From IMG/VR virus record IMGVR_UViG_2728369554_000009, positions 1-40,186 of that record: a DNA stretch of 40,186 nt, one strand, 5' to 3'. The DNA is from a virus. Lineage: Duplodnaviria; Heunggongvirae; Uroviricota; Caudoviricetes. The position numbers and the translations under genes are program-made. The notes below the pieces were generated by a model that ran no database searches, was not told the origin of the DNA, and saw only the letters and a program-made list of their open reading frames with translations. Shown in pieces: positions 10,122 to 31,033 of this stretch (position 1 is its first letter; each line of letters begins with the position of its first letter).

Positions 10122-10452
10122 ATCAGCAGCAGAGCGCAAAGCCGCTCAGAGAGCCAGACAAGCTGCATCTGGTGTGCGTAAGCTGGAGATTGTGCTTGAT
10201 GCTCAGGAAATTGAAATGCTTGAGCGGAACTGCGCCGCCCGGCGCCCTGGTCGCGATCCCTATGAAATGGCCGAGTACATCGCGCTGCTGATCCGCCAGG
10301 ATGATGCACGTGTGCGCGGGCGTATAAAATCGATCAGCAGAAAACTTTGCGGTAAGTGCGGCGAGAGAGTTCCCGTTAATTCATGCCCGTGTAATGGTGA
10401 CTCGCAATGCTGGGTGACTAAAGGCTGGCATGAAACGAAATTAATAGTGTGA
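10114..10452 (+). CDS. Cys-rich basic protein and possible late regulator. It is the last gene before the terminator and terminase genes.
   Basis: 112 aa. Cysteine cluster: CGKCGERVPVNSCPCNGDSQC. The function is inferred from position only. Confidence 0.45.
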   Translation: MAKSAAERKAAQRARQAASGVRKLEIVLDAQEIEMLERNCAARRPGRDPYEMAEYIALLIRQDDARVRGRIKSISRKLCGKCGERVPVNSCPCNGDSQCWVTKGWHETKLIV

Positions 10453-10460
10453 CATGTCAC
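10449..10460. repeat. 12-bp palindrome GTGACATGTCAC, copy 1
   Basis: Exact sequence. It overlaps the stop of the 10114-10452 gene. Confidence 0.8.
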
Positions 10461-10501
10461 GAGTAGATTATGCATGATGAATTTGATGGGTTTTGAATAC
10501 T

Positions 10502-10527
10502 GCCGCCAACTATGGCGGCTTTATTTT
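10502..10527 (+). terminator. Intrinsic terminator between the early-right genes and the terminase genes
   Basis: Hairpin gccgcca-acta-tggcggc followed by tttatttt. Confidence 0.75.
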
Positions 10528-10530
10528 GCA

Positions 10531-10566
10531 TGGTACTATTACCACAACGGTAACTATTACCACGGT
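10531..10566 (+). repeat. Two direct repeats GGTA(A)CTATTACCAC spaced 18 bp apart, just upstream of terS
   Basis: tggtactattaccac / ggtaactattaccac. Each holds the GGTA/TACC half-site words in reversed order. Confidence 0.6.
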
Positions 10567-10570
10567 GGTT

Positions 10571-11167
10571 ATGATGCCTGCTGAACCTAAAACCTATAAA
10601 CGCAAATCAACGCAATTTAAGCCACTAACAGCAATGCAGGAGGCTTATTGCCAGTCATACATCAAAACGCCTGAAAACCAGACTCAGGCAGCGATTAACG
10701 CAGGATTCTCCCCAAATACAGCGGCAGTTAAAGCCAGTGTCATGATGCGCGATGAACGCATTCAAAAACGGATTGCCGAGTTGATGGAGGAGCGCAACAA
10801 ACGAATGCGCGTCAGTGCTGATTACGTTCTCATGCGCCTGGTGGAGATCGACCAGATGGACGTGATCGACATCCTCAACGACGATGGGAGCCTTAAGCCA
10901 ATCCGCGAGTGGCCGAAAATCTGGCGCACTACGCTTAGCGGCTTTGATCTGTCATCGACCATCATGAACATGAACGAGGATTCGATAGAGACAATCCTCA
11001 AAAAAATTAAATGGCCTGACAAGGTGAAGAACCTCGAACTGATTGGTAAGCACGTCGACGTCAAAGCATTCAAAGAACGCCTGGATGTTAATGTGAATGT
11101 GACAATTGCTGATCGCATAGCAGCAGCCAGGAAGCGACTCAAAGAACGTCAGGATGGTAATCAGTGA
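10571..11167 (+). CDS. terS: Terminase small subunit
   Basis: The start was moved to the ATG at 10571 (MMPAEPK). QEAYCQSYIKTPENQTQAAINAGFSPNTAAVKASVMMRDERIQKRI is the Terminase_2-type HTH segment. Confidence 0.75.
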   Translation: MMPAEPKTYKRKSTQFKPLTAMQEAYCQSYIKTPENQTQAAINAGFSPNTAAVKASVMMRDERIQKRIAELMEERNKRMRVSADYVLMRLVEIDQMDVIDILNDDGSLKPIREWPKIWRTTLSGFDLSSTIMNMNEDSIETILKKIKWPDKVKNLELIGKHVDVKAFKERLDVNVNVTIADRIAAARKRLKERQDGNQ

Positions 11168-12639
11168 CAGATACAGTGTTATCTCCTGAAGAGCAGTTGA
11201 TCGAGGATATTGCAGGGTTTACTCACGATCCGCTTGGTTATGCCCTCTATGCGTTCCCGTGGGGGGAAGAGGGGACTGAACTGGCACATGCTACTGGCCC
11301 ACGTCAGTGGCAGGCTGATGCGTTCCGAGAGATACGTGATCACCTGCAGAATCCAGAGACGCGCTATCAGCCGCTTATGCTGGCACGCGCTTCTGGTCAC
11401 GGTATTGGTAAATCCGCATTCATCTCAATGCTGATCAACTGGGGCATGTCCACTTGCGAGGATTGTAAGGTCGTGGTGACCGCCAACACCGACAACCAGC
11501 TACGAACGAAGACCTGGCCGGAAATTATCAAGTGGTCGAACCTTGCTATCACGGAAGACTGGTTTACCTGTACCGCTACCGCGATGTACAGCAATGACCC
11601 TGGGCACGACAAGCGGTGGCGTGCTGACGCAATACCCTGGTCTGAGCACAACACTGAGGCGTTCGCCGGACTACACAACGAGCGCAAACGCATCATCGTG
11701 GTGTTTGATGAAGCGTCGAACATTGCGGATCTGGTGTGGGAAGTTGCTGAGGGTGCGCTTACGGACGAAGACACTGAGATTATCTGGGTGGCGTTCGGAA
11801 ACCCGACGCGTAATACCGGACGTTTCCGTGAATGTTTCCGCAAGTATAAACACCGCTGGAAAACTGCGCAGATTGACAGTCGGACGGTGGAAGGTACCAA
11901 CAAACAGCAGTTGCAGAAATGGGTTGATGACTACGGGGAAGACAGCGACTTCGTTAAAATCCGTGTGCGTGGCATATTCCCTGATGCATCTGAATTGCAG
12001 TTTATCCCTACCGGTCTTACTGACGAGGCAATGAAACGGGTGGTAACCGCTGCGCAGGTTGCACATGCTCCGGTGATAATCGGCGTTGACCCGGCATACT
12101 CCGGCGTTGATGACGCTGTGATATACCTGCGGCAGGGGCTACACAGTAAGGTGCTGTGGACTGGCAACAAGACTACCGACGATCTGATTATGGCGAAGCG
12201 TATCGCTGACTTTGAAGACCAGTATCAGGCTGACGCGGTGTTCATCGACTTCGGTTACGGAACCGGTTTGAAGTCAATCGGTGACGGCTGGGGTCGTACA
12301 TGGCAACTTGTTCCGTTCGGTGGCGCGTCTACTGACCCGCAGATGCTTAACAAGCGTGGGGAGATGTTCAACTCATGTAAGACATGGCTGAGGCTGGGCG
12401 GCATGCTGGATGACCAGGAAACTGCAGACGACCTGTCGGCGGCAGAGTACAAAGTTCGCGTGGACGGTAAAATCGTTATCGAACCGAAGGAGGATATCAA
12501 GGAGCGGCTTGGGCGTTCGCCGGGTAAAGGCGATGCGCTACTGCTGACGTTTGCGTTCCCTGTGTCGAAGCGTCTGCGAATTCCCGGTCAGCAGAACCAG
12601 CAAGGCAAGGCCATCACAGATTACGATCCCTATGCTTAA
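11164..12639 (+). CDS. terL: Terminase large subunit
   Basis: 491 aa. GTG start overlapping the terS stop. It has a Walker-A-like ARASGHGIGKS and a later VVFDEAS (Walker B) motif. Confidence 0.9.
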   Translation: MTDTVLSPEEQLIEDIAGFTHDPLGYALYAFPWGEEGTELAHATGPRQWQADAFREIRDHLQNPETRYQPLMLARASGHGIGKSAFISMLINWGMSTCEDCKVVVTANTDNQLRTKTWPEIIKWSNLAITEDWFTCTATAMYSNDPGHDKRWRADAIPWSEHNTEAFAGLHNERKRIIVVFDEASNIADLVWEVAEGALTDEDTEIIWVAFGNPTRNTGRFRECFRKYKHRWKTAQIDSRTVEGTNKQQLQKWVDDYGEDSDFVKIRVRGIFPDASELQFIPTGLTDEAMKRVVTAAQVAHAPVIIGVDPAYSGVDDAVIYLRQGLHSKVLWTGNKTTDDLIMAKRIADFEDQYQADAVFIDFGYGTGLKSIGDGWGRTWQLVPFGGASTDPQMLNKRGEMFNSCKTWLRLGGMLDDQETADDLSAAEYKVRVDGKIVIEPKEDIKERLGRSPGKGDALLLTFAFPVSKRLRIPGQQNQQGKAITDYDPYA

Positions 12640-12689
12640 TCCGCTGGTGGGGATAATATCGTTGATATCCTCTGGTGAGGATAAAACAA

Positions 12690-12713
12690 AGCCAGCTCAT
12701 AGGCTGGCTGTTT
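12690..12713. terminator. Bidirectional terminator between terL and the reverse-strand cassette
   Basis: Hairpin agccagc-tcatag-gctggct, flanked by aaaacaaa on one side and gttt on the other. Confidence 0.65.
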
Positions 12714-12725
12714 GTGACATGTCAC
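12714..12725. repeat. 12-bp palindrome GTGACATGTCAC, copy 2
   Basis: Exact sequence directly abutting the terminator. Confidence 0.8.
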
Positions 12726-12729
12726 GGTG

Positions 12730-13062
12730 TTATTTCGGTAGATTGTGTTTGGCATTCGACTCGTCTATCACGTAACGCATTGCAGTTCGACCGAGATTAC
12801 CAGGATCTTCATGCAGACTCACTCGTGCCTTTAGGAGCACACATTCAGCCTTGACATAGTTTGCTGGAATTATTCCTACCTCGGCATTTTTAAATGCCTC
12901 CTTCACCGCCTCACCGTTGTACTGACCGCCAAGCAACTCTGTACATGTCAGGTTGTTATGGATAATTGCAAGGAGATCTTTAATCTCTTCACGCAGGTTT
13001 ACAATCGCCATCGCGGCATTGATAGCTGCGGCATAGCGCTCAGCTGCAGTCTTCTCTTTCAT
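12730..13062 (-). CDS. Orphan hypothetical protein (110 aa) opposing the late operon
   Basis: The start MKEKTAAERY lies behind AAGGTGA. The 142-aa extension would run through a terminator hairpin. No family recognised. Confidence 0.55.
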   Translation of the reverse strand: MKEKTAAERYAAAINAAMAIVNLREEIKDLLAIIHNNLTCTELLGGQYNGEAVKEAFKNAEVGIIPANYVKAECVLLKARVSLHEDPGNLGRTAMRYVIDESNAKHNLPK

Positions 13063-13073
13063 GATTTTCACCT

Positions 13074-13099
13074 TAAAAAAATGCCCGGACGAACCGGGC
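13074..13099 (-). terminator. Intrinsic terminator 12 nt upstream of the Shine-Dalgarno of the 110-aa gene
   Basis: Minus-strand gcccgg-ttcgt-ccgggc followed by attttttt. Confidence 0.7.
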
Positions 13100-13141
13100 G
13101 AATGATCAACGGAGTGCCTTCCTTGGCGGGTGATGCAGGGT

Positions 13142-13357
13142 TTACAGCGCAACGTCATCGGAATGGCGTTCTGCTGTAAAAAGGGCGGTGGTCAGAAGAA
13201 GGAGAACTGCCACCGCCAAAGCTACACGCATTGCCTGGTACTGCCGTATCACGGTCCTAACGTGATTGGGTTGTGGTGGCCGGTGCTGATCTCCGGCTTG
13301 AAATATGCTCAGTGTTAGCTGCCACTCTCTCAAGAGGATATGCGTCATGATTTTCAC
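13142..13357 (-). CDS. Possible small membrane peptide. It is 71 aa from the GTG, or 29 aa (MRVALAVAVLLLLTTALFTAERHSDDVAL) from the internal ATG.
   Basis: It has a hydrophobic C-terminal helix and its own downstream terminator. The ribosome-binding sites are weak. Confidence 0.3.
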   Translation of the reverse strand: MKIMTHILLREWQLTLSIFQAGDQHRPPQPNHVRTVIRQYQAMRVALAVAVLLLLTTALFTAERHSDDVAL

Positions 13358-13386
13358 TGAGTTTGTTGGGTAACCCTGACTTCCGG

Positions 13387-13740
13387 CTATTCACGCAGCT
13401 TGTCTTCCAACTCAGGCTTATGCCTTACCCATTCCCCCACGTTCACGGGGTGCGCATCAGCCTGCGCATTCACCACAACGGAAAGAGCACTGACTTCGAG
13501 CAGACCTTGGGCCCAGGAACGACGATCAATCTCAATGCTCTTACCTGTTGCATCCTCGTCTCTTCCGAGGTGTCACACCTGATCGCCGGGATGGTGAATC
13601 CCCGTGCGCGGAATAAAACCGCTCGACTTGCACATTCCGGCTACCTGGTTCGTTTGCCCGAGCAAGGGAGGGTGCCCCTTAAACGTATCCAGACCGCTAT
13701 CGGCGCATGTGCCATACGCCGTACTGCTCAAAATAAAAGC
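13387..13740 (-). pseudogene. Decayed reading frame with an in-frame TGA (13573-13575) and no convincing start
   Basis: The minus-strand translation ..GFIPRTGIHHPGDQV*HLGRDEDATGKSIEIDRRSWAQGLLEVSALSVVVNAQADAHPVNVGEWVRHKPELEDKLRE* looks protein-like but is interrupted. Confidence 0.3.
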
Positions 13741-13803
13741 TCACTCCACCTGTTCAATTTAACGACAAGCCAGTCAGGTTAGTAACCGGAATGAACTCTT
13801 TGG

Positions 13804-13818
13804 TTACCTGAAAGGTAA
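13804..13818. promoter_or_regulatory. Perfect TTACC-N5-GGTAA operator ahead of the structural operon
   Basis: ttacctgaaaggtaa, 90 bp upstream of the first structural ORF. Confidence 0.55.
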
Positions 13819-13908
13819 TAATTTGTGCGTTAAATGTCAACTACCTACGATAAATAAATCATATGTGGTTAAATTGGTAATAATTTAATTGCGTACGGAG
13901 TCATTGAT

Positions 13909-14115
13909 ATGTGCATGGGTAGCTCACCATCAGTGCCTGCAACACCAGAAGTTCAGGCAGCACCACAGGAGCAGGATGCCGCCGTTGTTGATGCCCGCGA
14001 CGAAGAAACTCGTCGCCGTCGCGCTGCTGCTGGTCGTAGTTCTACGCTGCTTACCGGTTCTCAGGGTGACACATCAACCGCTAATACCAGCGGTAAAACG
14101 CTGCTTGGTCAGTAA
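13909..14115 (+). CDS. Small conserved head-module protein (68 aa)
   Basis: A GGAG Shine-Dalgarno lies 9 nt upstream, and the same ggagtcattga-atg context precedes the portal gene. The RRRRAAAGRSSTLLTG motif recurs upstream of portals in related podoviruses, from memory. Confidence 0.55.
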   Translation: MCMGSSPSVPATPEVQAAPQEQDAAVVDARDEETRRRRAAAGRSSTLLTGSQGDTSTANTSGKTLLGQ

Positions 14116-14129
14116 CCGGAGTCATTGAA

Positions 14130-15809
14130 ATGGCGGAAACAACTAAAGAGCGATTGAACAAACAGTTCGCACAACTTGAAAGCGAGCGTCAGTCGTTCGA
14201 GCCGCACTGGCGCGAGTTGAGTGATTACATCAACCCGCGTGGTTCCCGCTTTCTGACTTCTGAGGTCAACCGTAACGATCGACGCAATACACGCATTATT
14301 GATTCGACCGGGACTATGGCGGCGCGCACTCTCGCCAGCGGCATGATGTCAGGCATCACAAGCCCCGCGCGTCCGTGGTTTCGCCTGGCTACGCCAGATC
14401 CTGAAATGATGGATTATGGCCCTGTTAAGTTGTGGCTTGAGGCGGTGCAGAACCGCATGAACGATATGTTCAATAAGTCGAATCTCTATCAGTCGCTGCC
14501 GCAGTTATACGGAAGCCTCGGCACATACAGCACTGGTGCAATGGCAGTGCTGGAGGATGACGAGGACATCATTCGCACAATGCCATTCCCGATAGGCAGT
14601 TACTACCTGGCTAACTCACCTCGTGGCAGTGTGGACACCTGTTTTCGCAAGTTCTCTATGACTGTTCGTCAGCTTGTTCAGGAGTTCGGGCTAAATAACG
14701 TCAGCGAATCCGTAAAAAGCATGTGGGAAAGCGGCACCTACGAGAAGTGGATTGAAGTGATGCATTCGGTTTACCCGAACATTGACCGCGATACATCGAA
14801 GCTGGATAGCAAGAACAAGCCATTCAAATCGGTTTATTACGAGGTTGGTGGCGATAACGACAAGTTGTTGCGTGAGTCCGGATTCGATGAGTTTCCAATT
14901 ATGGCTCCGAGCTGGGAAGTTAACGGCGAAGATGTTTATGGATCATCATGCCCGGGTATGCTGGCGCTTGGACCTGTTAAGGCATTGCAGCTTCTCCAGA
15001 AGCGCAAGTCGCAGTTGATTGATAAAGCCACCAATCCGCCGATGGTTGCTCCGACTTCCCTCAAGAATCAGCGTGCCTCCCTTCTTCCTGGCGACATCAC
15101 GTATATCGATCAGATTACTGGTCAGGATGGTTTCAGGCCTGCTTATCTGGTTAACCCCAGTACAGCAGATTTGGTGGCAGACATTCAGGACACCCGTCAA
15201 ATCATTAACAGCGCCTACTTTGTCGATCTGTTCATGATGTTGCAGAACATCAATACCCGCTCGATGCCTGTTGAAGCGGTGATCGAAATGAAAGAAGAAA
15301 AACTTCTGATGTTGGGGCCGGTTCTGGAGCGTCTGAACGACGAATGTCTTAATCCTCTCATTGACCGCGCTTTCTCGATGATGGTGCGTAAAAACATGCT
15401 GCCGCCACCGCCTGACGCGATGGAAGGTATGCCCCTGAAGGTCGAATACATTTCCGTCATGGCTCAGGCGCAGAAGTCTATCGGCCTGTCCAGTCTGGCG
15501 TCCACGGTTAACTTCATTGGTCAACTTGCGCAAGCGAAACCAGAAGCTCTCGACAAACTCAACGTTGATCAGGCGATCGATGCATTCGCTGATATGTCCG
15601 GAGTGTCTCCAACCGTCATTGTTCCGCAGGAACAGGTTGAGCAGGCTCGCCAGCAACGGGCACAGCAACAACAGCAGCAACAAATGATGGCGATGGGGAT
15701 GGCGGCGGCACAGGGTGCCAAGACGCTAAGCGAAGCTAAAACTTCGGATCCGAGTGTTTTGTCAGCTATGGCGAATGCAGTTAGTGGTCAGGGTGGGCAA
15801 TCACAATGA
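14130..15809 (+). CDS. Portal protein
   Basis: 559 aa. Its position after the terminase genes, its size and a Q-rich C-terminal tail fit podovirus head-tail connector proteins. Confidence 0.85.
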   Translation: MAETTKERLNKQFAQLESERQSFEPHWRELSDYINPRGSRFLTSEVNRNDRRNTRIIDSTGTMAARTLASGMMSGITSPARPWFRLATPDPEMMDYGPVKLWLEAVQNRMNDMFNKSNLYQSLPQLYGSLGTYSTGAMAVLEDDEDIIRTMPFPIGSYYLANSPRGSVDTCFRKFSMTVRQLVQEFGLNNVSESVKSMWESGTYEKWIEVMHSVYPNIDRDTSKLDSKNKPFKSVYYEVGGDNDKLLRESGFDEFPIMAPSWEVNGEDVYGSSCPGMLALGPVKALQLLQKRKSQLIDKATNPPMVAPTSLKNQRASLLPGDITYIDQITGQDGFRPAYLVNPSTADLVADIQDTRQIINSAYFVDLFMMLQNINTRSMPVEAVIEMKEEKLLMLGPVLERLNDECLNPLIDRAFSMMVRKNMLPPPPDAMEGMPLKVEYISVMAQAQKSIGLSSLASTVNFIGQLAQAKPEALDKLNVDQAIDAFADMSGVSPTVIVPQEQVEQARQQRAQQQQQQQMMAMGMAAAQGAKTLSEAKTSDPSVLSAMANAVSGQGGQSQ

Positions 15810-16102
15810 CAGATTACGAAGACGATCAACTGAAAGAAGAAAACGCCCGTAAGCAACGTGACATGGCACAGCGTGAAATTGATGACATTTGCTTTGTCAT
15901 GAGCAGTGAACAGGGGCGTCGCGTTGTCTGGTCGGTGCTGGAGAAAGGCCGTGTGTTTTCCGCTATCTCACCGATGGACGCTATGGCAATGGCATTTAAT
16001 GAGGGGCAACGCAATCTGGCGCTGGAACTGTTTCAGCGCGTTATGGCGCATTGCCCTGAACAGTATTTGAAGATGGCCAAAGAGGCCAGTGAACAGGAGT
16101 GA
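15806..16102 (+). CDS. Hypothetical head-assembly protein (98 aa)
   Basis: ATGA overlap with the portal gene. Acidic N-terminus. Confidence 0.6.
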   Translation: MTDYEDDQLKEENARKQRDMAQREIDDICFVMSSEQGRRVVWSVLEKGRVFSAISPMDAMAMAFNEGQRNLALELFQRVMAHCPEQYLKMAKEASEQE

Positions 16103-16104
16103 TC

Positions 16105-16800
16105 ATGAATTTATTTGAGCGTTTGCTGTATCGCCGTCTTTGCAATGAGCAACCAGTCGATGGTGGAGCAGCTCCGGCTGCGTCAGAACCGTCAGCGCCT
16201 GCAGGTGATAACCCTGCTCCAGTTGGTGATCCATCACAACAGGAAGGTGATAAGCCACAACCTGTTGCTGATGGCGATAAACCTGATGATGAAAAAAAAT
16301 CTGAAAACGATAAGCAGGGTGAAAAAAAGGACGGCGATAAACCAGAGGGTGCGCCGGAGAAGTACGAATTTCATGCTGCCGAAGGCGTAGAGCTGGATAC
16401 AGAAGCGTTGAAGGAATTCGAGCCGGTGGCGCGAGAACTAAACCTGACCAACGAGCAAGCGCAAAAGCTGGTTGATGCTTATCCGAAGATTCTGGCAGGT
16501 GTGCAGCAGCGCCAGGCAGAAGCCTGGCAGAAAACAACCGAGCAGTGGGCTGCTGATGTAAAAGCTGACAAAGAAATTGGTGGCGACAAGTTGATTTCTA
16601 ACCTTAGCGCCGCACAGCGTGCGCTTGACCAGTTCGGGACACCCGAGCTCAAAGAATATCTGAACACCACCGGGCTGGGTAATCACCCTGATCTGGTCAA
16701 AACGTTCGTGAAAATCGGAAAGGCGATGTCTGAAGATGGCATGGTCACCGGTGGTAATGAAGGCCAGCGTAGTGCGGCCGAAGTGCTCTATGGCAAATAA
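16105..16800 (+). CDS. Scaffolding protein
   Basis: Acidic, P/E/K/D-rich and helical. It lies directly upstream of the major capsid gene. The ATG sits 5 nt after CAGGAG. Confidence 0.7.
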   Translation: MNLFERLLYRRLCNEQPVDGGAAPAASEPSAPAGDNPAPVGDPSQQEGDKPQPVADGDKPDDEKKSENDKQGEKKDGDKPEGAPEKYEFHAAEGVELDTEALKEFEPVARELNLTNEQAQKLVDAYPKILAGVQQRQAEAWQKTTEQWAADVKADKEIGGDKLISNLSAAQRALDQFGTPELKEYLNTTGLGNHPDLVKTFVKIGKAMSEDGMVTGGNEGQRSAAEVLYGK

Positions 16801-16808
16801 GAGAGGAA

Positions 16809-17801: not shown

Positions 17802-17852
17802 CGCCTGTTATTAACCTGTGGGCCGCAACAGGCCCACTAATGGAGAAAGAAG

Positions 17853-18290
17853 ATGATCACCGACAAACTGTTGATGTTCTCCGAAGCTCAGGCGGTTACG
17901 AATACCGCGGCTTCTACTGACGTAATCGATCTCGGTCCAATTGATGGAAACCGTCGCGATATCGGCGTGGGTTATCCGCTTGAGTTTTGGGCGCTGGTTA
18001 ACACAGCCGCCGCGGCAAGCGGTGATGCAACTGTAAACATCCAGTTGCAGACGAGTGAGAATAACAGCTCATGGACCACTATTTATGATAGTGGCGCACT
18101 GGCAAAGACCGCCCTGACAGCAGGTAAACGAGTTGTTTCTGCAAAGGTGCCTGCCGGTGTTCAGCGATATCTGCGTGTTAACTACTCCGTCGCAACTGGC
18201 CCACTAACGGCTGGCGAATTCACTGCTGGTATCAGTCTTGATGTTGATGCCAATACGCCGTATCCGATCCGCTCAAAAGTAACTGGTTAA
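17853..18290 (+). CDS. Capsid decoration or cement protein (jellyroll type, Bbp16-like)
   Basis: 145 aa directly after the capsid gene. MFSEAQAVTNTAASTDVIDLG...RYLRVNY resembles the BPP-1/epsilon15-type decoration family, from memory. Confidence 0.55.
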   Translation: MITDKLLMFSEAQAVTNTAASTDVIDLGPIDGNRRDIGVGYPLEFWALVNTAAAASGDATVNIQLQTSENNSSWTTIYDSGALAKTALTAGKRVVSAKVPAGVQRYLRVNYSVATGPLTAGEFTAGISLDVDANTPYPIRSKVTG

Positions 18291-22550: not shown

Positions 22551-23125
22551 TGTGCGATCCGGTTATTGCTGGTGGCGCAATGCTCGCCATGAGTGGCATT
22601 CAGGCATACACCCAGTACCAACAGGGAAAGTATGCCTCGAAGGTTGCAGAAGCGAACGCAGATATAGCCACTGCTCAGGCAAATGATGCAATAAACAGAG
22701 GTAACGCTGAAGCTGAGCAACGGCGCAGAGAGACCCGACAGCGGCTTGGTACACAGGCGGCGACAATGGGGGCTACCGGCGCTGATTTATCTACAGGTAA
22801 CGCGCTGGATATATTTGGCGACACTGCCCAGTTTGGCGCTCTTGATTCTCTGACGACGGTGAATAACGCGCAACGCGAGGCTTACGGTTATCAGGTTCAG
22901 GCTGCCAACTATAAAGCAGAAGCCAGTTCAGCCCGTAAACAGGGGAATGTGGGAGCAGCAACAACATTGCTCACTGCGCCTCTGAAGGCATACGGTGCGT
23001 ACCAGATGTTTGGTGGGACGTGGAGTCCGTTCTCTAAAGGAAGTACATCTAGTGGTGGGACGCCAATGTTATCTAACTCAGGTTTTATGAATTCTGACTC
23101 CCGATTCAAAATAGGAGGTTACTGA
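22550..23125 (+). CDS. Internal virion or ejection protein (T7 gp14 position)
   Basis: 191 aa. Hydrophobic N-terminus MCDPVIAGGAMLAMSGIQAY followed by an A/Q/N-rich helix. Confidence 0.5.
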   Translation: MCDPVIAGGAMLAMSGIQAYTQYQQGKYASKVAEANADIATAQANDAINRGNAEAEQRRRETRQRLGTQAATMGATGADLSTGNALDIFGDTAQFGALDSLTTVNNAQREAYGYQVQAANYKAEASSARKQGNVGAATTLLTAPLKAYGAYQMFGGTWSPFSKGSTSSGGTPMLSNSGFMNSDSRFKIGGY

Positions 23126-25833
23126 TGCCTGTTGTTCCTACTACATCCGGACGCCAGGTGCAAAGTCGTGGTGTGCAAACCGGTGGTTTTCAAACCTTCG
23201 ATGTTCCTCAGGCAGGTCAGGTGCTGGCGAATGTCGCAGATCAGTATGCGGTGGCATATGGTGAAGCCAGGCAGAAAGCGAATGTTGCATTGTCTCAGGA
23301 TGCCATCCTTCAGCTTAATCAGCGCAGCAATGAACGTCTTTATAACCCTCAAACCGGTTTTTATGCACAACAAGGCAAAAATGCGATTGGTAAGGGGCAA
23401 GAGTACATATCTGGATTTGATCAGGATGTGGAAGAAATAGCTGCTTCATTGACTGATGAAGCAGCAAGAAATATGTTTTTGCAACAAGCCAGAACACAGA
23501 AAATTCAGTTCAGTACTGGAGTTCTCAGACATGAGATAGGGCAGACAAATGCCTATGAAGATGAGCAATATCAGGCAACGAGAAAATTATGGATACAAAA
23601 TGAAGCGGATGCCTGGAATGACCCGCAAACTGCCACTTTAGCCAGAAATTCCAGAATGGTAGCCATTGCCAGATATGGAGCAGCCAGGGGATGGTCACAA
23701 GAACGCATTCTGGAAGAAATAGAAAGTGATGATCGCAGTGCCACAGAAATGCGGGCGAAGAATTATGCCGCTGCTAATCCGGAAGGATGGTTAAATGGTC
23801 AGTTTCAGAAAAATGATTCTGGAGGCATGGACATGCGTGCCATACGCCTTGTTGAATCAGGTGATCGTCATTTTAATCCTGATGGTAGTATTCTTGAAGG
23901 ACCGAAAACATCTTCTGGAGAGAGGGCCCAGGGGAAATACCAGTTAATGCCGGGCACAGGGAAAGAACTGGCGGCCAAACGTGGCGTTGAATACAACCCT
24001 ACGGACGAACAACAGCATGAAATGCTCGCCAGTGACTATGTAAATCAACTGTATGGTAAGTACGGTTCCGAAATATTGACCGGAGCAGCATATAACTGGG
24101 GGATGGGTAACGTGGATAAACTGATCGCCAAAGTCGGTGATCCACGTAAAGGTGAAATATCAGAAGAAGAATTTATCCGAAATCTTCCATCAGAAACACA
24201 AGGGTGGCTTTCCCGATATAGAAAAAATAAAACTGGAATGGATCCGCTGACTATTTATCAAATAGATAACCTTGCTAATAGTCAGATAGAAAAGCAAAGG
24301 AAGTTAATATTAGAACAGCTTGAGCCAGCTATTAATAACACCATGGCCCAGCTATATAACGGTGAGGTTCCAGATTATATACCGGCTCAGGAGACCATCA
24401 TCAGGGGGTATGGAAAAAACGCAGATAAAATAATCAATCAACTGGATATAGCGATTGATAACGCGAGAATATTCCAGACAATTCAGTATTTGCCTCCTTC
24501 TCAGCAGCAAGAAGAAATGCAGAAAGTGAAGCCTGAGGTTAACGATCCTCACTATGCGTTAAAACTCGATGCTTACGGAAAATTGTCTGCATTGCTTCAG
24601 AGATCAAATGAAGCAATTCAGGCGCAACGGGATTCACGCAGATTTAATGAGGCGCTGACAATAGGTGAAAAATTAGACCCAAGCAACAAGTCAATGCAGA
24701 AAGCTGCTGATTACACAGAAATGGCGCAGAACTTTCGTATTAATGATGCCTCCACTCATGATGGGGTTGTTCGGCTTGTGGCTCAGACTGGCATAATGCC
24801 TTCGCAGGTCATCACGCAGCTTTCAGCAGTATCCCGATCCAGCAATCAGGAAGTGGTTAAAAATGCGGCGGAACTGTTTAGTCGGTTATATGAAACAGAC
24901 AATGCATCTATTGGAAATATGCCGAAGGATATGCAGGGTTTTTATCTGACTGTTAAGCAACTAACTGATGCAGGGATGTCTTCAGATGCTGCTATTGTGG
25001 AAGCGCAGAGTAAGACATACAACCAGACAGATGCACTAAGGGCGCAGCTCTCATCTGTTCAGAGTACAAGAGAATACAAAAAAGAGCGTGACAGCGCAGC
25101 CAATTCTGCTGTCAGTAATATGACTCACTGGCTTCGCTGGGATCCGTCTGCGGATGACCAGACACCGGAAGCAGCGCTCTTTCGCAATGACTATCAGATG
25201 CTGTATGACGTTAACTATCGCCTTGCTGGTGGTAACGCTGACGTAGCGAAGCAAATGACCAACCAGCAGATAGCCCGCACTTGGAGTATCAGCGAGGTCA
25301 ACGGGGAAGCACAGTTTATGAAATATGCACCGGAGGCGCTTTATCAATATGGGCCGTCAGGCTGGATTGCAGCGCAATGGAAGGCTGAAAAAGAAAAAAT
25401 CATGTATGGCGATGACTTACATAAACCGGCTCCTTCATTTAACCGACCTTCAACTGAGGCTGGTGCATTGGGACTGAATAAGCCACGCTCACTGGTTGGA
25501 GGTGAGTTGATTCTCGTTCCTGACTTATCAACTCCGAGAGATAAGCTTTATTCAGTTGTGATCAGAACAAAAGATAAAGATGGTATTACGAGGGATGATT
25601 TATTTTATGACAAGCATGGAAGACAGATGCGCTGGGGGCCATCACTAGAAGATTGGGAACCTTATAAGAAAATGCAGCAGGAACGGGAGCAGCACGAGCA
25701 GGAAGAAATTATGCGTGGACAGGCTATACGAAACTTCAAAGACAAGCATCGCGCTCTGGATGAGCAGTATCAGCGCCTGCATAACGAACGTATGGACAAA
25801 TTTAAAGATTACTTTTCGTGGGGATCTAAATAA
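23125..25833 (+). CDS. Ejection protein with a lytic transglycosylase (SLT) domain
   Basis: 902 aa. VESGDRHFNPDG...GKYQLMPGTGKE...AAYNWGMGNV is the SLT E-S / Q-L-M / AYN-G pattern. Confidence 0.8.
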   Translation: MPVVPTTSGRQVQSRGVQTGGFQTFDVPQAGQVLANVADQYAVAYGEARQKANVALSQDAILQLNQRSNERLYNPQTGFYAQQGKNAIGKGQEYISGFDQDVEEIAASLTDEAARNMFLQQARTQKIQFSTGVLRHEIGQTNAYEDEQYQATRKLWIQNEADAWNDPQTATLARNSRMVAIARYGAARGWSQERILEEIESDDRSATEMRAKNYAAANPEGWLNGQFQKNDSGGMDMRAIRLVESGDRHFNPDGSILEGPKTSSGERAQGKYQLMPGTGKELAAKRGVEYNPTDEQQHEMLASDYVNQLYGKYGSEILTGAAYNWGMGNVDKLIAKVGDPRKGEISEEEFIRNLPSETQGWLSRYRKNKTGMDPLTIYQIDNLANSQIEKQRKLILEQLEPAINNTMAQLYNGEVPDYIPAQETIIRGYGKNADKIINQLDIAIDNARIFQTIQYLPPSQQQEEMQKVKPEVNDPHYALKLDAYGKLSALLQRSNEAIQAQRDSRRFNEALTIGEKLDPSNKSMQKAADYTEMAQNFRINDASTHDGVVRLVAQTGIMPSQVITQLSAVSRSSNQEVVKNAAELFSRLYETDNASIGNMPKDMQGFYLTVKQLTDAGMSSDAAIVEAQSKTYNQTDALRAQLSSVQSTREYKKERDSAANSAVSNMTHWLRWDPSADDQTPEAALFRNDYQMLYDVNYRLAGGNADVAKQMTNQQIARTWSISEVNGEAQFMKYAPEALYQYGPSGWIAAQWKAEKEKIMYGDDLHKPAPSFNRPSTEAGALGLNKPRSLVGGELILVPDLSTPRDKLYSVVIRTKDKDGITRDDLFYDKHGRQMRWGPSLEDWEPYKKMQQEREQHEQEEIMRGQAIRNFKDKHRALDEQYQRLHNERMDKFKDYFSWGSK

Positions 25834-28800
25834 TGCCGTTCTATCCTGTATCTGAATCAAACAATAACGGATTTATTTCTGCTGGTCTCGCCATTCCTGA
25901 ACCTGATGAACAGAGTTTTGATGTGCATCCGCCAGAAGGTAAGAACCCTGAACCTCGTCCCAAAGAGCCTTCATTGCTTGCCGCAGCAATACGACAGAAC
26001 AATATTCTGGCTGGTTTTTTCCGTCCTGCCAGACAGTTTGAACCGGTCGAAGGTTATAACCCATATGCTGATAAAAATGAGTTGCACGGTTATGAATACT
26101 GGGGGGCGAAATTTGCAGATTCCCGATCGCCAGAGGAAACGGCGTGGATTAAGCAGCAGATAGATGATGAAAATGAAGACAGACGTTTATTGTCTGATGC
26201 TGGCGTAGTTGGAACTCTTGCCAGTATTGCTGCAGGAATGGATCCGGTTACCGTTGCGTCAATGTTTATCCCCGGTGCTCAAGGAGGGGCACTGGCGCGT
26301 ATTGGCTCACAGATTGCGATTGGTGCTGCCGGTACAGCATTAAGCGAGGTTGTGCTGAATAATCAGCAAATAACACGCTCATGGGGTGAAAGTGCCGCTC
26401 ACGTTGCAGCGGGTGCGATGATGAGCGGCGTGTTTGCCAGTGCTGGTGTTGCGCTTTCGCCATCCGTCCGGGCTGCAGCCACGCGTGAGGTTGCTGATGC
26501 TCTTGATAATATGAGCATTACATCAGCGACTGACAGGGCTGCCGCTTCGCTTTCTGATGGTGGTAGTGTTGGTGCTATGAAAATTGATACAGCGACTCTG
26601 GATGATTTAACCCCTGTTTCCGGTGGGTGGGTTGGAAAGGCTGCATGGAAAGCAGGGAGCTATCTTACTCCTTTGACAAGGTTAATGGAGTCTCCGTCCA
26701 AGACAGTGCGAAAAACAACGCTGGAGTTAGCCGAAAATAATTTCACCCTTAAAGGAAATGAAAGGGGGATTGAAACACCGGTAGCTGTAGAAACCCGTAC
26801 ACGTGGATGGCAGCGTGAAGAAGCTGCTGTTGTTGTCGGAAATAAACAGGCATACGCAAAGTATAAAGCTGATGGTGGTGACATGAGTTTTGATTCATTT
26901 CGTCAGCAGGTTGGGAATGCTATGCGAAGCGGTGATGTGCATGCTAATCCTGTTGTTCAGGAAACGGCGCAGGCGATGCGAACTGTATTAAATCGGGTGA
27001 AAGTTGAAATGCAAAAGCTTGGTTTATTGCCGCCAGATGAAGAACTGAAAGCATTAGGCCAGGCAAGCTATTTCCCACGCATATATAAAGTTGGAAAAAT
27101 AATCAGTGAACGCGATAAATTTCGACGTATTTTGGTTGACTGGTGGTCGAGAGGAAATAAAACACTGGATCCTGAGGATGCTGAAATTGCAGCGGATATC
27201 GTAATTAATAAAATTACTGGTGCTAAGGTTCCACAGGATTTTGTCAGCGTATTTTCTGTAAAAGCCGCAGGTAGTACGAAAGAAAGAACATTAAATGTTC
27301 CTGATAGTCTTATCGGTGATTATCTTGAAAGTGATGTGAATTACGTGCTGCAACGTCATATCCGTGAAGCGGCAGCAGAAATTGAGTTGATGAGAACATT
27401 TGGCAAACGAACTATGACTGAGCGTCTGCAATTAATTGAGGACGAATATGACAGTCTGTTACGGGAAGTGCCTGAAAAAATAAAGGCGAAATATGACGAA
27501 AGTGTGGCAAATCTGAAAGCACGTTATGAGAGCAATGGTGAAGTTGTTCCTCAGGGTAAACTCGATTCATTAATGCGAAAGTACGAAAAGGAATTACGGA
27601 AAGAACAGTCCAGACTTTCAAAATCAAGAGCAAATGATCTCAGAGACATAACAGCATTACGCGATCGTCTTGTTGGTACATATGGGATGCCTGATGATCC
27701 GTCTTCGTTTTTTGTTCGTGCTGGCGCTTTTCTGCGGGATGTGAACTTCACGACCAAACTCGGTGGAATGACAGTATCAGCTATTCCAGATCTGGCCAGA
27801 GGGGTTATGGTTAATGGTTTCCGTAACACCATGAAAGGCTATGCTTCTCAGATATCCCAATCACCGGCATTTAAGGCCAGCAAAGAAGATATGTTGAAGA
27901 TGGGGATTGGATTGGAAGCTGTACTACATTCACGTTCTCGTGCAATTGGTGATCTTGTTGACAGTTCTTCCAGGACAACAGCAGTCGAAGCAGGAATGGA
28001 GCGAATTACTGATGCCTTCGGCAAGCTGACACTCATGGATCGATTTAATGACATAAACAAATCCATGAACGGAATGCTCACGTCAGACGGTATTTTGTCC
28101 GGTGCGTTTTCTGCACGTCGCATGGCAAAACTCGGTATCAACGACAATATGGCTGCGCGTATTCGCAGTGAGTTCGAGAAACATGGTGAGGTAATTGATG
28201 GATGGCACATTGGTAACTTTGATAAATGGGACGATCAGTACGTTGCCGGAGTATTCCAGTCAGCGGTTCTGAAAGACGTTAATAACACTATCATCACCCC
28301 CGGTATTGGTGACACACCTTTATGGGCGAGTACTCCAATGGGGCGAACGATATTTCAGTTTAAATCATTCACAACGGCTTCATACAACCGTGCGCTACTT
28401 GGTGGGTTACAGGAAGGAACTGCGCAATTTTATTATGGCACTGCATTTCAGATTGCTCTTGGCTCACTGGTCTATGCGCTTAAAGAAGCATCGAAAGGGA
28501 AAAATGTTGACTGGTCACCAGAGAAGCTGGTGCTTGAGGGTATAGATAGATCCGGTATTCTTGGGCCATTGATGGAATATAACAACATGGCTGAAAAGGC
28601 GACTGGTGGTGCTGTTGGGCTGGGGGCTTTATTTGGCACTGGCACACAGTCCAGGTATGCCAGTCGTGGATTCGTAGGATCTCTATTCGGACCGTCATTT
28701 GGTCTTGCGGATAGCATCATTGATGTGACCTCAGGAGTGTTGAATGGTGATGCCGGTGATCGTATTGTGCATAATGTCCGAACCCTGATACCCGGCAATA

Positions 28801-28853
28801 ACCTGTTCTGGATTGCGCCACTAATAAACCAAGTGGATCCGGTGATGCGTTAA
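25833..28853 (+). CDS. Large internal virion or ejection protein
   Basis: 1006 aa. It is the last gene of the ejection block and has glycine-rich hydrophobic segments. Confidence 0.6.
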   Translation: MPFYPVSESNNNGFISAGLAIPEPDEQSFDVHPPEGKNPEPRPKEPSLLAAAIRQNNILAGFFRPARQFEPVEGYNPYADKNELHGYEYWGAKFADSRSPEETAWIKQQIDDENEDRRLLSDAGVVGTLASIAAGMDPVTVASMFIPGAQGGALARIGSQIAIGAAGTALSEVVLNNQQITRSWGESAAHVAAGAMMSGVFASAGVALSPSVRAAATREVADALDNMSITSATDRAAASLSDGGSVGAMKIDTATLDDLTPVSGGWVGKAAWKAGSYLTPLTRLMESPSKTVRKTTLELAENNFTLKGNERGIETPVAVETRTRGWQREEAAVVVGNKQAYAKYKADGGDMSFDSFRQQVGNAMRSGDVHANPVVQETAQAMRTVLNRVKVEMQKLGLLPPDEELKALGQASYFPRIYKVGKIISERDKFRRILVDWWSRGNKTLDPEDAEIAADIVINKITGAKVPQDFVSVFSVKAAGSTKERTLNVPDSLIGDYLESDVNYVLQRHIREAAAEIELMRTFGKRTMTERLQLIEDEYDSLLREVPEKIKAKYDESVANLKARYESNGEVVPQGKLDSLMRKYEKELRKEQSRLSKSRANDLRDITALRDRLVGTYGMPDDPSSFFVRAGAFLRDVNFTTKLGGMTVSAIPDLARGVMVNGFRNTMKGYASQISQSPAFKASKEDMLKMGIGLEAVLHSRSRAIGDLVDSSSRTTAVEAGMERITDAFGKLTLMDRFNDINKSMNGMLTSDGILSGAFSARRMAKLGINDNMAARIRSEFEKHGEVIDGWHIGNFDKWDDQYVAGVFQSAVLKDVNNTIITPGIGDTPLWASTPMGRTIFQFKSFTTASYNRALLGGLQEGTAQFYYGTAFQIALGSLVYALKEASKGKNVDWSPEKLVLEGIDRSGILGPLMEYNNMAEKATGGAVGLGALFGTGTQSRYASRGFVGSLFGPSFGLADSIIDVTSGVLNGDAGDRIVHNVRTLIPGNNLFWIAPLINQVDPVMR

Positions 28854-28874
28854 TCAATATTTATTGGAGTTCTT

Positions 28875-29402
28875 TCAATGGCTGTTTATGGCTTCTAAAG
28901 AAGCTTCTGCACTTATCGGCAAAGCAATAGTATCCTTGTTAGATGTGCTATTGCTTTCCAGAACTATGGAAATCCAATCCTCTTGGTTTTCATTAATTGT
29001 GCTGACAGCCATGATAGCATTCAAATCATTTTTATATATTTCTGATCGAATAAGACCTTTCCTGAATAATTTAGTTAAGTTTTCAGCTATCGACATCGCA
29101 CGAATGCTAACTTTACTAAGCTCAATTGCGTCACTACCTGCGACTTTGGCGTGTTGAGAAAGAGCCATCAAAGCTATATGTGAAAATGTTTCTTCTTTTG
29201 AAAAACCGTTACTTAAAGACATGAGTGATACACCAGCTCCGTATGGGGTGAGTTTATATCCTGATACATTCAGTGCATGCTCTACAAAGGTAAGATCATC
29301 AGTTGTAGAAACATGCATATCGTTACTTTTTTGTTTTTTTGCAATAAATAAAAAAACAAAATTAATAATCACGATGCCGACGATGATTAAGAAAACTTCC
29401 AT
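28875..29402 (-). CDS. Membrane-anchored orphan protein (175 aa): N-terminal transmembrane helix plus a ~145-aa soluble domain
   Basis: MEVFLIIVGIVIINFVFLFIAKKQK signal-anchor. GAGGA Shine-Dalgarno. It has its own operator-bearing promoter. The DNA is visibly AT-rich compared with its flanks. Confidence 0.6.
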   Translation of the reverse strand: MEVFLIIVGIVIINFVFLFIAKKQKSNDMHVSTTDDLTFVEHALNVSGYKLTPYGAGVSLMSLSNGFSKEETFSHIALMALSQHAKVAGSDAIELSKVSIRAMSIAENLTKLFRKGLIRSEIYKNDLNAIMAVSTINENQEDWISIVLESNSTSNKDTIALPISAEASLEAINSH

Positions 29403-29422
29403 TGCTTTTCCTCACAATAACA

Positions 29423-29437
29423 TTACCTTAAAGGTAA
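29423..29437. promoter_or_regulatory. Perfect operator 21 bp upstream of the membrane-protein ATG
   Basis: ttaccttaaaggtaa. Confidence 0.55.
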
Positions 29438-29462
29438 TATTTTGTGCTAATGTGATCAAGTG

Positions 29463-29861
29463 TTAAGTGTATACCTCCTGCTGTTCAGTCGTGATTTTAC
29501 CCGGCAACACCTTTTTAGCTTTGCGCGGGTTAACCACATGGCCTTTAGTCCAGTACTCGTAGAGCACATCATCACACTCTTCCTGATACTGGATTACCTT
29601 ATCGCGGATTTCAGGGCGGACTTTGTTTGGACTGATGCTGTTCAACCAAGCTGCCAATTTTCGTAAAGCCATACAAATCATGGCTTGCACCCCTCCGGCA
29701 GAAGGTATGGTGATTTCCACCATACCCTTCGAGAAGCGTTGAGAAATCTTCTTATGTTGAGATTTCCAGTCTAGACCCATTCCCTCAACGATAGGTTTCA
29801 TTGGGGTGTACGGTTCGCCGTTGTGATTGACAACATAAAGTTCTACGCCGTGGAATGGCAC
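29463..29861 (-). CDS. P22 Ant N-terminal-domain-like protein (132 aa, GTG start)
   Basis: PFHGVELYVVNHNGEPYTPMKPIVEGMGLDWKSQHKKI matches the P22_AR N-terminal pattern as I recall it. The long Ant C-terminal part is missing. Confidence 0.6.
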   Translation of the reverse strand: MPFHGVELYVVNHNGEPYTPMKPIVEGMGLDWKSQHKKISQRFSKGMVEITIPSAGGVQAMICMALRKLAAWLNSISPNKVRPEIRDKVIQYQEECDDVLYEYWTKGHVVNPRKAKKVLPGKITTEQQEVYT

Positions 29862-30008
29862 GTTGATAGTAGTGACAAGTTTGAAACATCGCTGGTTGTA
29901 AGCCAGCAGATGCTCGTTATTTTACATCGCGGTACAATTTCTCGCTGGTGGCTCTTTTATACACCTTAACCAAATATGGTTGATTTTGATATTTATCTTC
30001 GTCTATTA

Positions 30009-30265
30009 TTACCTTTTCGGTAAATTTACATCGCACTCCTCTTGTGCCATAGTAATCGGGCACTGGCAAAATCCAGTGCCGGGATTGGTCTCCCGGATTA
30101 CTACAGAGGCACATATGCCGCATAAGCGGTTTTTTTATGTGTAAAGCGCACCTATTCTATGGTGGGCTGTGTGGGGGCACCGAAAGGTGCGCCGGGTTCC
30201 TTTGTAGCCGGTAAGACCAACTCTGCACAGTTCACCACCATCTGATTGGTCTCAGCGGTGGTGAT
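30009..30265 (+). repeat. Outer inverted repeat, arm A (operator plus structured leader)
   Basis: It is the reverse complement of 32938-33197. The first 95 nt are identical. After that there is patchy identity with paired substitutions. Confidence 0.85.
30024..30136 (+). ncRNA. Terminated leader sRNA, copy A, possibly C4-like
   Basis: An outer stem tagtaatc/gattacta (30050-30057 / 30096-30103) encloses hairpins ggcactgg-caaaat-ccagtgcc and ggga-ttggtc-tccc. Hairpin ccgc-ataa-gcgg plus T7 follows. The loop ttggtct is complementary to agaccaa in the downstream leader. Confidence 0.5.
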
Positions 30266-30290
30266 TAACCTAACTACAAAGGTGATCGCC

Positions 30291-30983
30291 ATGAATACCA
30301 AACCTTCCATCTTTTCCTTTGAGTCATCCTGCCAGATCCGTATGTTCATGATTGACGGAGAACCTTGGTTTGTCACCAAAGATGTGTGCAATGCTTTGAA
30401 TATTGATGTTACACAAGCGAGAAAACTTGATAAAAAAGGCTGGAACAAAAAGGGGCTGTATTCAATACAGACCCCTGGTGGAATACAAGAACTATCCATC
30501 GTTTCAGAATCAGGTCTCTACATCCTTATTCTGCGTTGCAAAGAGGCAATGACTGAGGGAACGAGAGCATTCAGATTTCTTGAATGGGTTACAGGTGAGG
30601 TTCTTCCTCAGATCCGCCGCACCGGAAGTTACATTAAAAACTCGCTCCCGCAGGAAGAACGCATAAAGATGGTTGCCGACCAGGTAGCCAACGCCACGGC
30701 GTCAGCAGTAATGCAGGCGATGAAGATAGAGAACAAAACCTACAGTGCCCCGCTGAAGCCCGGCTACCGCAGCCTGATTCATTCTCCGTCTGGTGTTCTC
30801 GGCCTGACGGAGAACTCACTGCTGATGAATCTGCTGAACCAGTTACAGGAAGACGGGCACGATGTATCGGGCGCGGCGGCGGAGCTGACCACCATGTTCT
30901 GCTACATCGTCGGTGTGAGCAAATGCCTGCGTGATATCCAGACGCACGCGGAATACATCAACGACAAGGCAGGGTTCTTCTGA
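30291..30983 (+). CDS. Antirepressor 1: Bro-N domain plus the shared C-terminal module
   Basis: The start MNTKPSIFSFE lies behind AGGTGA. QIRMFMIDGEPWFVTKDVCNALNI is Bro-N-like. The last ~81 aa are nearly identical to those of the 32255-32911 product. Confidence 0.75.
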   Translation: MNTKPSIFSFESSCQIRMFMIDGEPWFVTKDVCNALNIDVTQARKLDKKGWNKKGLYSIQTPGGIQELSIVSESGLYILILRCKEAMTEGTRAFRFLEWVTGEVLPQIRRTGSYIKNSLPQEERIKMVADQVANATASAVMQAMKIENKTYSAPLKPGYRSLIHSPSGVLGLTENSLLMNLLNQLQEDGHDVSGAAAELTTMFCYIVGVSKCLRDIQTHAEYINDKAGFF

Positions 30984-31008
30984 CAGAACGGCGGCACAGG
31001 GACGTGCA
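30741..31008 (+). repeat. Inner inverted repeat, arm A (antirepressor C-terminal module plus about 25 nt of 3-prime UTR)
   Basis: About 8 mismatches over about 245 coding nt against the reverse complement of 32230-32497, from manual alignment. Confidence 0.85.
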
Positions 31009-31021
31009 AAACGAAACTAGC

Positions 31022-31033
31022 GTGACATGTCAC
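31022..31033. repeat. 12-bp palindrome GTGACATGTCAC, copy 3
   Basis: Exact sequence directly abutting the terminator at 31034-31058. Confidence 0.8.

Follow-up and report, generated by a model that had tools for sequence, protein, structure and literature searches.

The locus studied here raises the question of what a perfect 12-bp palindrome, GTGACATGTCAC, does at three module junctions of a tailed phage genome, and of which protein could read it. The window, that is the whole stretch of DNA that was analysed (40,186 nucleotides, IMG/VR record IMGVR_UViG_2728369554_000009), is by its sequence a prophage of the phiV10/epsilon15 type (Uetakevirus). The palindromes are probably the cognate duplex DNA sites of a dimer formed by a small family of phage proteins, represented by gp49 of phage epsilon15, which would act at the boundaries of operons and modules. 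We infer from the sequences that gp49 binds the motif as a dimer and that this binding controls what crosses these boundaries. The first-pass annotation of the window had described the palindrome and its surroundings; the link to the upstream gene and the resemblance to the host site matS had been missed and are added here.

The palindrome in the window

The sequence GTGACATGTCAC is present in exactly three copies in the window, at the positions that the first-pass annotation had given. Dinucleotide-preserving shuffles predict 0.01 copies and none of 100 shuffled sequences contained three or more, in agreement with the earlier statement that three copies are far beyond chance. As had also been reported, sites 1 and 2 share an extended form, and site 3 fits the same 14-bp motif flanked by a pyrimidine and a purine (Y...R). 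The three sites and the gene that ends in the first of them are as follows.

10448-10461: site 1, TGTGACATGTCACG, with the exact 12-mer at 10449-10460; it contains the TGA stop codon of the gp49 gene
12713-12726: site 2, TGTGACATGTCACG, with the exact 12-mer at 12714-12725
31021-31034: site 3, CGTGACATGTCACA, with the exact 12-mer at 31022-31033; it directly abuts a terminator
10114-10452, plus strand: gp49-family gene (112 amino acids), last gene of the early-right operon, with its stop in site 1

Association of the palindrome with the gp49 family

The open reading frame (ORF) 10114-10452 encodes a homologue of epsilon15 gp49, phiV10 p55 and N15 gp46, and matches PHROG 536 ("transcriptional regulator"). 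Homologues were detected by tblastn in 153 phage records of very different types, comprising Uetakeviruses, N15-like telomere phages, P2-like Yersinia phages, Vibrio and Aeromonas phages and one lambdoid phage.

Two sets of viral-contig loci were scanned for the motif. In the first set, composed of 80 loci with close gp49 relatives (1.34 Mb), the exact 12-mer is found at the stop of the gp49 homologue in 77 loci. All 133 motif matches of this set are located either at the stop of the gene or downstream of terL, the latter mostly at +2.2-2.4 kb and in three cases at +3.1-4.4 kb. The second set consists of 80 diverse loci whose homologues are 36-94% identical to N15 gp46, and the motif is present in 79 of them. 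The stop of the homologue falls inside the motif in 52 of these loci and within 45 nt of it in 14 more (66 in total). Many of the diverse loci contain further copies kilobases away from the homologue gene, and N15-like, P2-like and Vibrio phages have additional copies elsewhere. When all 1024 pentanucleotides were compared as arms around a 2-nt centre, GTGAC came out well ahead of the rest: 79 loci have it at least once and 48 at least twice, for about 1.2 matches per arm expected in 1.29 Mb. Neither gp48, which is found in 0 of 86 loci, nor the other proteins of the window co-occur with the motif.

Individual phages display the same association. The stop of N15 gene 46 is inside GTGACTGGTCAC, and the Vibrio phage K233, whose homologue is only 32% identical, has three copies of GTGAC-NN-GTCAC and no other arm-spacer-arm repeat with at least three copies. 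In the lambdoid phage Chlobot the palindrome is located 7 nt past the TAA stop of the homologue; because it lies beyond the stop, the conservation of the palindrome is not a coding constraint. Conversely, no copy was found in the 45.5 kb of Pseudomonas phage Ab31, whose terminase and virion module is homologous and which carries a Q gene and lacks gp49, nor in the part of Cobetia phage Carin1 that was searched, nor in 667 kb of random unrelated viral loci. The first-pass annotation had listed a regulator binding site among the possible roles of the palindrome, and the near-perfect co-occurrence with one small ribbon-helix-helix-like family, together with the absence from Ab31, is strong though indirect support for this proposal.

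In the whole viral collection, the real 14-mer has at least 120 matches versus 76 for a control 14-mer with swapped arms, and most of a sample of 80 of the real matches are in recognisable contexts of gp49 phages. In a scan of a genome collection (596 Gb), the matches listed for the 14-mer come mostly from unrelated taxa, as chance predicts, and a gp49 homologue is present in the same chunk for only three of 80 sampled matches. A literature search for the 12-mer and its variants returned only unrelated primers, and the ZX5 paper contains nothing on the motif.

Two further arrangements were observed. In the P2-like Yersinia phage vB_YenM_42.18 (L004, 8028-12561), the gp49 homologue is directly upstream of a gene for an 872-amino-acid PHP plus SMC/ABC-ATPase protein that matches the model of the anti-phage defence protein Ppl, and two palindromes 33 bp apart (11675 and 11708) are located just downstream, in the P2 cargo hotspot. 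Four high-GC viral contigs (L193 at ~10760-10860, L241 at ~1890-1960, L212 at ~755-800 and L222 at ~3140-3185) contain dense, iteron-like arrays of GTCAC/GTGAC half-sites with one full palindrome, apparently inside a coding region after a basic ERKRRQRER-like peptide; a gp49 homologue was not detected in these chunks.

Junctions occupied by the palindrome and their conservation

The terminators and modules adjoining the three sites in the window are listed below.

10502-10527, plus strand: intrinsic terminator ending the early-right operon (GCCGCCAACTATGGCGGC plus a T-run)
10573-12639, plus strand: terS-terL module, with homology to phiV10 p01/p02, bracketed by sites 1 and 2
12690-12709, minus strand: terminator hairpin between terL and the reverse cassette, with a good U-tract on the minus strand only
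12730-13533, minus strand: variable reverse cargo cassette, starting immediately right of site 2
30246-30983, plus strand: antirepressor 1 (Bro-N), the gene upstream of site 3
31034-31059, plus strand: intrinsic terminator after site 3 (AGGCCGCTTTCGCGGCCT plus a T-run)

Each copy is thus located at a 3' gene end beside an intrinsic terminator, as previously described, with the precision that the hairpin of site 2 makes a good terminator for the minus strand alone. Site 1 is 41 nt upstream of the terminator 10502-10519, which is kept in epsilon15 and annotated there as a rho-independent terminator. Site 2 is 75 nt past the terL stop (12639), with 4 nt separating it from the hairpin 12690-12709 on its left and another 4 nt from the reverse-gene stop (gene 12730-13158) on its right; in the working direction of the terminator, the order is palindrome, hairpin and U-run. 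Site 3 is 38 nt past the antirepressor stop (30983) and immediately before the terminator 31034-31051 on the plus strand.

The window is 97% identical to PAS61, phiV10 and ZX5 across the terminase-to-virion region, and epsilon15 displays only ~77% nucleotide identity with it. Absence of the palindrome from the equivalent junctions of related phages had been set beforehand as a refuting observation; it was found at the same three positions, in diverged flanks, in six Uetakevirus genomes (phiV10, epsilon15, Tyrion, SPN1S, PAT1 and PAS61). The departures are one mismatch in site 1 of phiV10 and the centre AG in site 2 of PAT1. The position of site 1 also holds a palindrome in Kp4865-1 and Omnitron. 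Kp4865-1 keeps sites 1 and 2 and has no terminator-abutting site 3, with copies at 24674 and 36317 instead. Site 2, after terL and the hairpin, is also conserved in more distant podovirus loci, and the palindrome-plus-terminator unit of site 3 ends the structural operon in the same six genomes.

Some other elements of the window were distinguished from these sites.

10541-10556: prophage-repressor operator-like site TTACCACAACGGTAAC, just before terS, of the form TTACC-N5-GGTAA and distinct from the palindrome
15858-15869: single-mismatch copy GTGACATGGCAC, inside the ORF 15806-16102; the same coding sequence is present in phiV10

The copy at 15858 is probably not a functional site. The sequence TTACCACAACGGTAAC matches the "repressor" binding sites annotated in the epsilon15 record AY150271. 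Sites of the type TTACC-N5-GGTAA are found in the window at 10541-10556, 30009-30024, 33183-33198, 5740 and 8156, that is just before terS, at both antirepressor promoters and in the immunity region; with this placement, the repressor may directly control or block each late segment. Site 1 was considered as a promoter (GTGACA-18-CATGAT, a match to nine of 12 promoter-like positions) and not retained, the match being weak and not conserved in register. The start of the phiV10 record inside site 1 is not a physical genome end, since the record merely starts after the p55 stop codon.

Site 3 is flanked by inverted repeats (30004-30103/33103-33202, 98% complementary, and 30728-30984/32254-32510, 95%). 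The two convergent antirepressor genes (Bro-N, 30246-30983, and AntA, 32255-32911) have their promoter/operator region in common, as well as their final 257 nt. The intervening segment, with site 3 and the cargo genes, could be inverted by homologous recombination.

Gene ends, cargo alleles and the possibility of an exchange anchor

From 224 unique sites, we observe that 163 (73%) are located within -5 to +45 nt of an ORF stop on either strand, versus 797 of 4480 random positions (18%). The Uetakevirus sites are at operon ends beside terminators; in other phages the sites are often between a stop codon and the ribosome-binding site of the next gene, and these downstream genes are unrelated to one another.

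No more than about 10-20 nt separate the palindromes from the points where homology to the relatives stops. Right of site 2, the homology with PAS61 and phiV10 stops at 12732 and 12734, respectively, and resumes at 13534; 53 of 54 close relatives diverge from the window at most 20 nt right of this site. Eight cargo alleles were distinguished there, all starting with GG(T/C)G(T/C)TA, which corresponds to a reverse-gene stop 4 nt from the palindrome. Five alleles begin right of site 1. The commonest alternative at this position, present directly after the palindrome in 30 of 80 close relatives, is a 70-amino-acid ORF with its own Shine-Dalgarno sequence; the window keeps only its last few codons (…DEFDGF*) at 10461-10500, and the window allele is a deletion derivative. 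At site 3, the palindrome and the terminator form a conserved 45-nt island between variable flanks.

These observations bear on another explanation, in which palindrome and terminator would be a short shared anchor for cargo exchange, or the target of a recombination activity, regulation being secondary. The breakpoints at all three sites and the number of alleles are what such an anchor would leave, as is the P2-like phage in which gene and sites are located in a known cargo hotspot beside a Ppl defence gene. However, breakpoints beside strongly selected elements are expected passively, cargo being tolerated only at operon ends. A length of 12 bp is short for homologous exchange, and no recombinase is associated with the motif. 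In addition, some copies, those in N15 repA and between conserved late genes, are in places without evident mosaicism, and the strict link to gp49 would be left unexplained. We consider an exchange anchor improbable. The module-exchange boundary suggested in the first-pass annotation stands in its descriptive part, since the breaks in homology, checked as had been proposed, coincide with all three palindromes; the support is for a coincidence rather than for a cause.

Other variable segments were noted. In the Klebsiella phage Kp4865-1 (L008), the region 12709-12760, right after site 1, contains a promoter (TTGACT...TATACT) overlapping a LexA-box-like sequence CTGT-N8-ACAG and followed by a new gene, and represents another cargo allele of this junction. 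The region 23031-33229 of the window (~10 kb), containing the genes of large internal virion/ejection proteins and the central cargo, has no nucleotide homology to PAS61 or phiV10, and its flanks are 97% identical.

Nature of the DNA site and of the gp49 protein

The general motif deduced from 158 unbiased unique sites is Y-GTGAC-NN-GTCAC-R (14 bp). The flanks are Y/R in 95% of half-sites, with a pyrimidine at position -1. The arms are invariant, without covariation, in all phages from those of E. coli to those of Vibrio. Each flank varies independently of the other, the combination C...A being observed 18 times for about 17 expected; mismatched flanks are thus as frequent as chance predicts, which indicates no RNA-pairing pressure. 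The centre is usually AT, with one central step per genome, such as TG/CA in N15 (28550, 33237 and 39269) or AA/TT in the locus L121, and its orientation relative to transcription differs between copies in both. The hairpin that the palindrome could form in RNA amounts to 4-5 bp only and does not appear in the minimum-energy fold computed for the contexts of epsilon15 site 1, N15 and Vibrio phages. The symmetry, the invariant arms, the independent flanks and the weakness of the hairpin together are more easily reconciled with a symmetric dimer bound to duplex DNA than with an RNA element. A site for CRP (TGTGA-N6-TCACA) does not have the right spacing, the sites reading TGTGA-N4-TCAC(A/G), and an Ogr-type site was rejected on spacing or base requirements.

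Two of the N15 copies have particular positions, both conserved in N15-like contigs. The copy at 28550 of the record is ~24 nt upstream of a promoter-like sequence TTGACG...TAGAGT facing the antirepressor (immA) operon, and the copy at 33237 is inside repA, ~620 nt from its start.

The gp49 family comprises 180 clusters at 50% identity among 1.84 billion representatives and is confined to phages and prophages of enteric bacteria, Vibrio and Aeromonas. Its members are standalone proteins of typically 105-135 amino acids; the fusions found among the representatives looked like gene-calling artefacts. The invariant residues are C40, C79, C82 and C99, with the segment R43-R47-P49-Y50...E54...L59-I60, and the N-terminus AERKAAQRARQ resembles an arginine-rich motif. 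In the predicted structure, a basic N-terminal helix and a conserved cluster of four cysteines accompany what looks like a ribbon-helix-helix fold; the AF2 model (pLDDT 66) resembles DNA-binding proteins of this class, MatP among them. Searches of Pfam, NCBIfam and the PDB with sequence and profile, and a Foldseek search, returned nothing for gp49, and no similarity to the Q or N families was detected.

The arginine-rich N-terminus is also the starting point of a second alternative, in which the transcribed palindrome would form a hairpin bound by this helix, and would control the translation of the next gene or termination and stability at the terminator. The motif is frequently 1-20 nt upstream of the next Shine-Dalgarno sequence or start (N15 gene 47, Chlobot, Vibrio terS, the 70-amino-acid ORF allele), and at site 2 (minus strand) and site 3 (plus strand) its hairpin and that of the terminator are predicted to be directly stacked. 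An RNA element is nevertheless improbable in our estimate: the 4-5 bp hairpin is missing from several predicted folds, the arms never covary, mismatches in the flanks are not avoided, the orientation of the centre is not conserved, and the modelled fold of gp49 resembles that of ribbon-helix-helix DNA-binding proteins.

A different hairpin, CCYG-TTGCAG-CRGG (also with ATGCAG), is found ~10-25 nt past the palindrome in L133, L140, L155, L168 and similar loci, where it precedes AlpA-like or DUF4224-like genes. Its stem apparently covaries (CCTG/CAGG versus CCCG/CGGG), and it may be a separate RNA element.

Comparison with known sites and regulators

The hosts of gp49 phages include Escherichia, Salmonella, Klebsiella, Yersinia, Vibrio and Aeromonas, all in groups that possess the proteins MatP and SlmA. 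A third explanation would be that one of these host factors binds the palindromes and ties the phage DNA to the machinery of chromosome organisation or division, MatP through matS (GTGACRNYGTCAC) or SlmA through its own site (GTGAGTACTCAC). MatP binds the 13-bp matS GTGAC(A/G)N(T/C)GTCAC, present in 23 copies in the Ter region of E. coli (PMC3116907), with the consensus GTGACATTGTCAC (PMC8669397). The arms of matS are identical to those of the phage motif, which equals GTGACATTGTCAC minus one central base; matS is 13 bp long (N3) whereas the phage site is 12 bp (N2). Among eleven sequences (the window and ten loci) searched with spacings of 0-8, the 13-bp form has no copy and only N2 recurs, with one stray N1 in Chlobot. 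Furthermore, matS sites are located in Ter and the phage sites at the ends of phage genes. MatP has a four-helix bundle and a coiled coil, both missing in gp49, which has a Cys-rich tail. The comparison of gp49 with E. coli MatP by BLASTP was insignificant, and gp49 matched neither Pfam PF06303 nor PF17414; the search for MatP homologues gave near-identical E. coli proteins only.

Like the phage motif, the SlmA site is a palindrome of 12 bp, and the outer four bases of the two are identical. Its bases G, T, A and G at positions 1, 2, 4 and 5 are needed (PMC3020112). SlmA strongly prefers G at position 5, where all phage sites have an invariant C, and the motif was rejected as a SlmA site; SlmA is moreover a TetR-family protein. 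A host-factor site would also have no need to co-occur with gp49 or to vanish with it, and this explanation is very unlikely.

A pac-related packaging signal for the terminase, which the first-pass annotation had also proposed, would agree with the bracketing of terS-terL by sites 1 and 2 and with the K233 copy 19 nt before terS, but has a negligible probability, since the three copies of the cos phage N15 (one near the ant operon, one in repA and one past gene 46) are remote from its terminase genes, the P2-like and lambdoid carriers also have distant sites, others being beside integrase or AlpA-type genes, and Ab31 with a homologous terminase has no copy.

Among known phage regulators, the placement of the palindromes recalls the stoperators of mycobacteriophage L5, which Brown et al. 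reportedly described in 1997 as sites of the gp71 repressor thought to stop elongating RNA polymerase. L5 stoperators are located, several per genome, in short intergenic gaps at gene ends and away from promoters, a placement matched by the phage motif (163/224). They differ from it as asymmetric 13-mers, present in 20-30 copies per genome, oriented with transcription and bound by the immunity repressor. The palindromes are symmetric, in two to four sites, with a variable orientation of the centre, and the operator of the immunity repressor is different (ATTACC-N5-GGTAAT in epsilon15).

The gene order resembles that of lambda Q/N, with a regulator as last early gene followed by a terminator and the late genes, and Ab31, without gp49 and motif, has its Q gene near the end of the early-right operon. 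Unlike the lambda Q/N sites, the palindromes are not embedded in a promoter and have no boxA, and the gp49 family is also present in the Q-bearing phages N15 and Chlobot. The repressors Arc, Mnt and CopG and the centromere binders ParG and omega act on operators placed over promoters, or arranged as tandem arrays in front of the regulator's own gene, whereas the commonest palindrome overlaps the 3' end of the gp49 gene; gp49 has in addition a C-terminal Cys cluster.

Proposed action of gp49 at the boundaries

In the mechanism that we propose, gp49 would be made as the last product of the early-right operon. A symmetric gp49 dimer would then bind Y-GTGAC-NN-GTCAC-R at three sites. All of them mark the 3' end of a transcription unit, beside a terminator: the end of the early operon, the junction between terS-terL and the reverse cassette, and the junction between the structural operon and the antirepressor.

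Three actions of the bound dimer are considered. Tentatively, and with more doubt than confidence, it would be a roadblock or insulator that reinforces the terminators separating operons, whether tandem or convergent. At every Uetakevirus site a transcription unit has its 3' end, on one strand or on both, each late segment seems to begin with its own repressor operator (as annotated in epsilon15 and at 10541 in the window), and ribbon-helix-helix proteins are typically repressors. The bridging of the sites in the manner of MatP is unlikely, though its probability is not negligible; the few dispersed copies per genome and the matS-like motif point to it. The probability is also low that bound gp49 is loaded onto, or permits, transcription reading through into the late genes. 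For this last action speak the position of the gp49 gene, which is that of Q in the related phage Ab31, the location of the palindrome before the terminators in the direction of transcription, and the sites found between essential late genes.

A more particular form of bridging, which we regard as improbable, is that gp49 proteins are "mini-MatP" dimers on a matS shortened by one base, bridging the two to four phage sites, or acting on the host machinery that reads matS (MukBEF unloading) or on SMC-like defence proteins. If so, the boundary palindromes would be structural or anti-host landmarks and not classical operators, and the difference between 12 and 13 bp would keep the phage and host systems orthogonal.

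Several points weigh against the assignment of the palindromes to a gp49 dimer on duplex DNA. The copy at the gene's own stop is co-inherited with the gene by linkage, so that the independent evidence is carried by the distal copies and the negative controls. The AF2 model of gp49 is mediocre and predicts no strand, where a ribbon-helix-helix protein has a strand-helix-helix fold and dimerises with a two-stranded sheet, Foldseek found nothing, and the hhalign comparisons with Arc, CopG and MatP were insignificant. The short distance to the next Shine-Dalgarno sequence and the stacking on the hairpins of sites 2 and 3 are what recognition at the RNA level would predict. The presence of the Q antiterminator in N15 and Chlobot indicates that the family is not generally a late switch, and some sites between essential late genes without a terminator argue against a simple roadblock.

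Significance

Uetakeviruses such as epsilon15, phiV10 and SPN1S serve as structural models, typing phages and reporter phages, and no recognisable late regulator of the Q or N type was found in the window or in the annotations of phiV10 and epsilon15. A family of hypothetical proteins without a Pfam family is now tied to a precise DNA motif, which gives a directly testable pair of regulator and site. The motif also marks the points where cargo is inserted (antirepressors, morons and defence genes), and is useful for the annotation and engineering of Uetakeviruses. Finally, its near-identity to matS raises the question of whether these phages are copying, avoiding or exploiting the system by which their hosts organise Ter.

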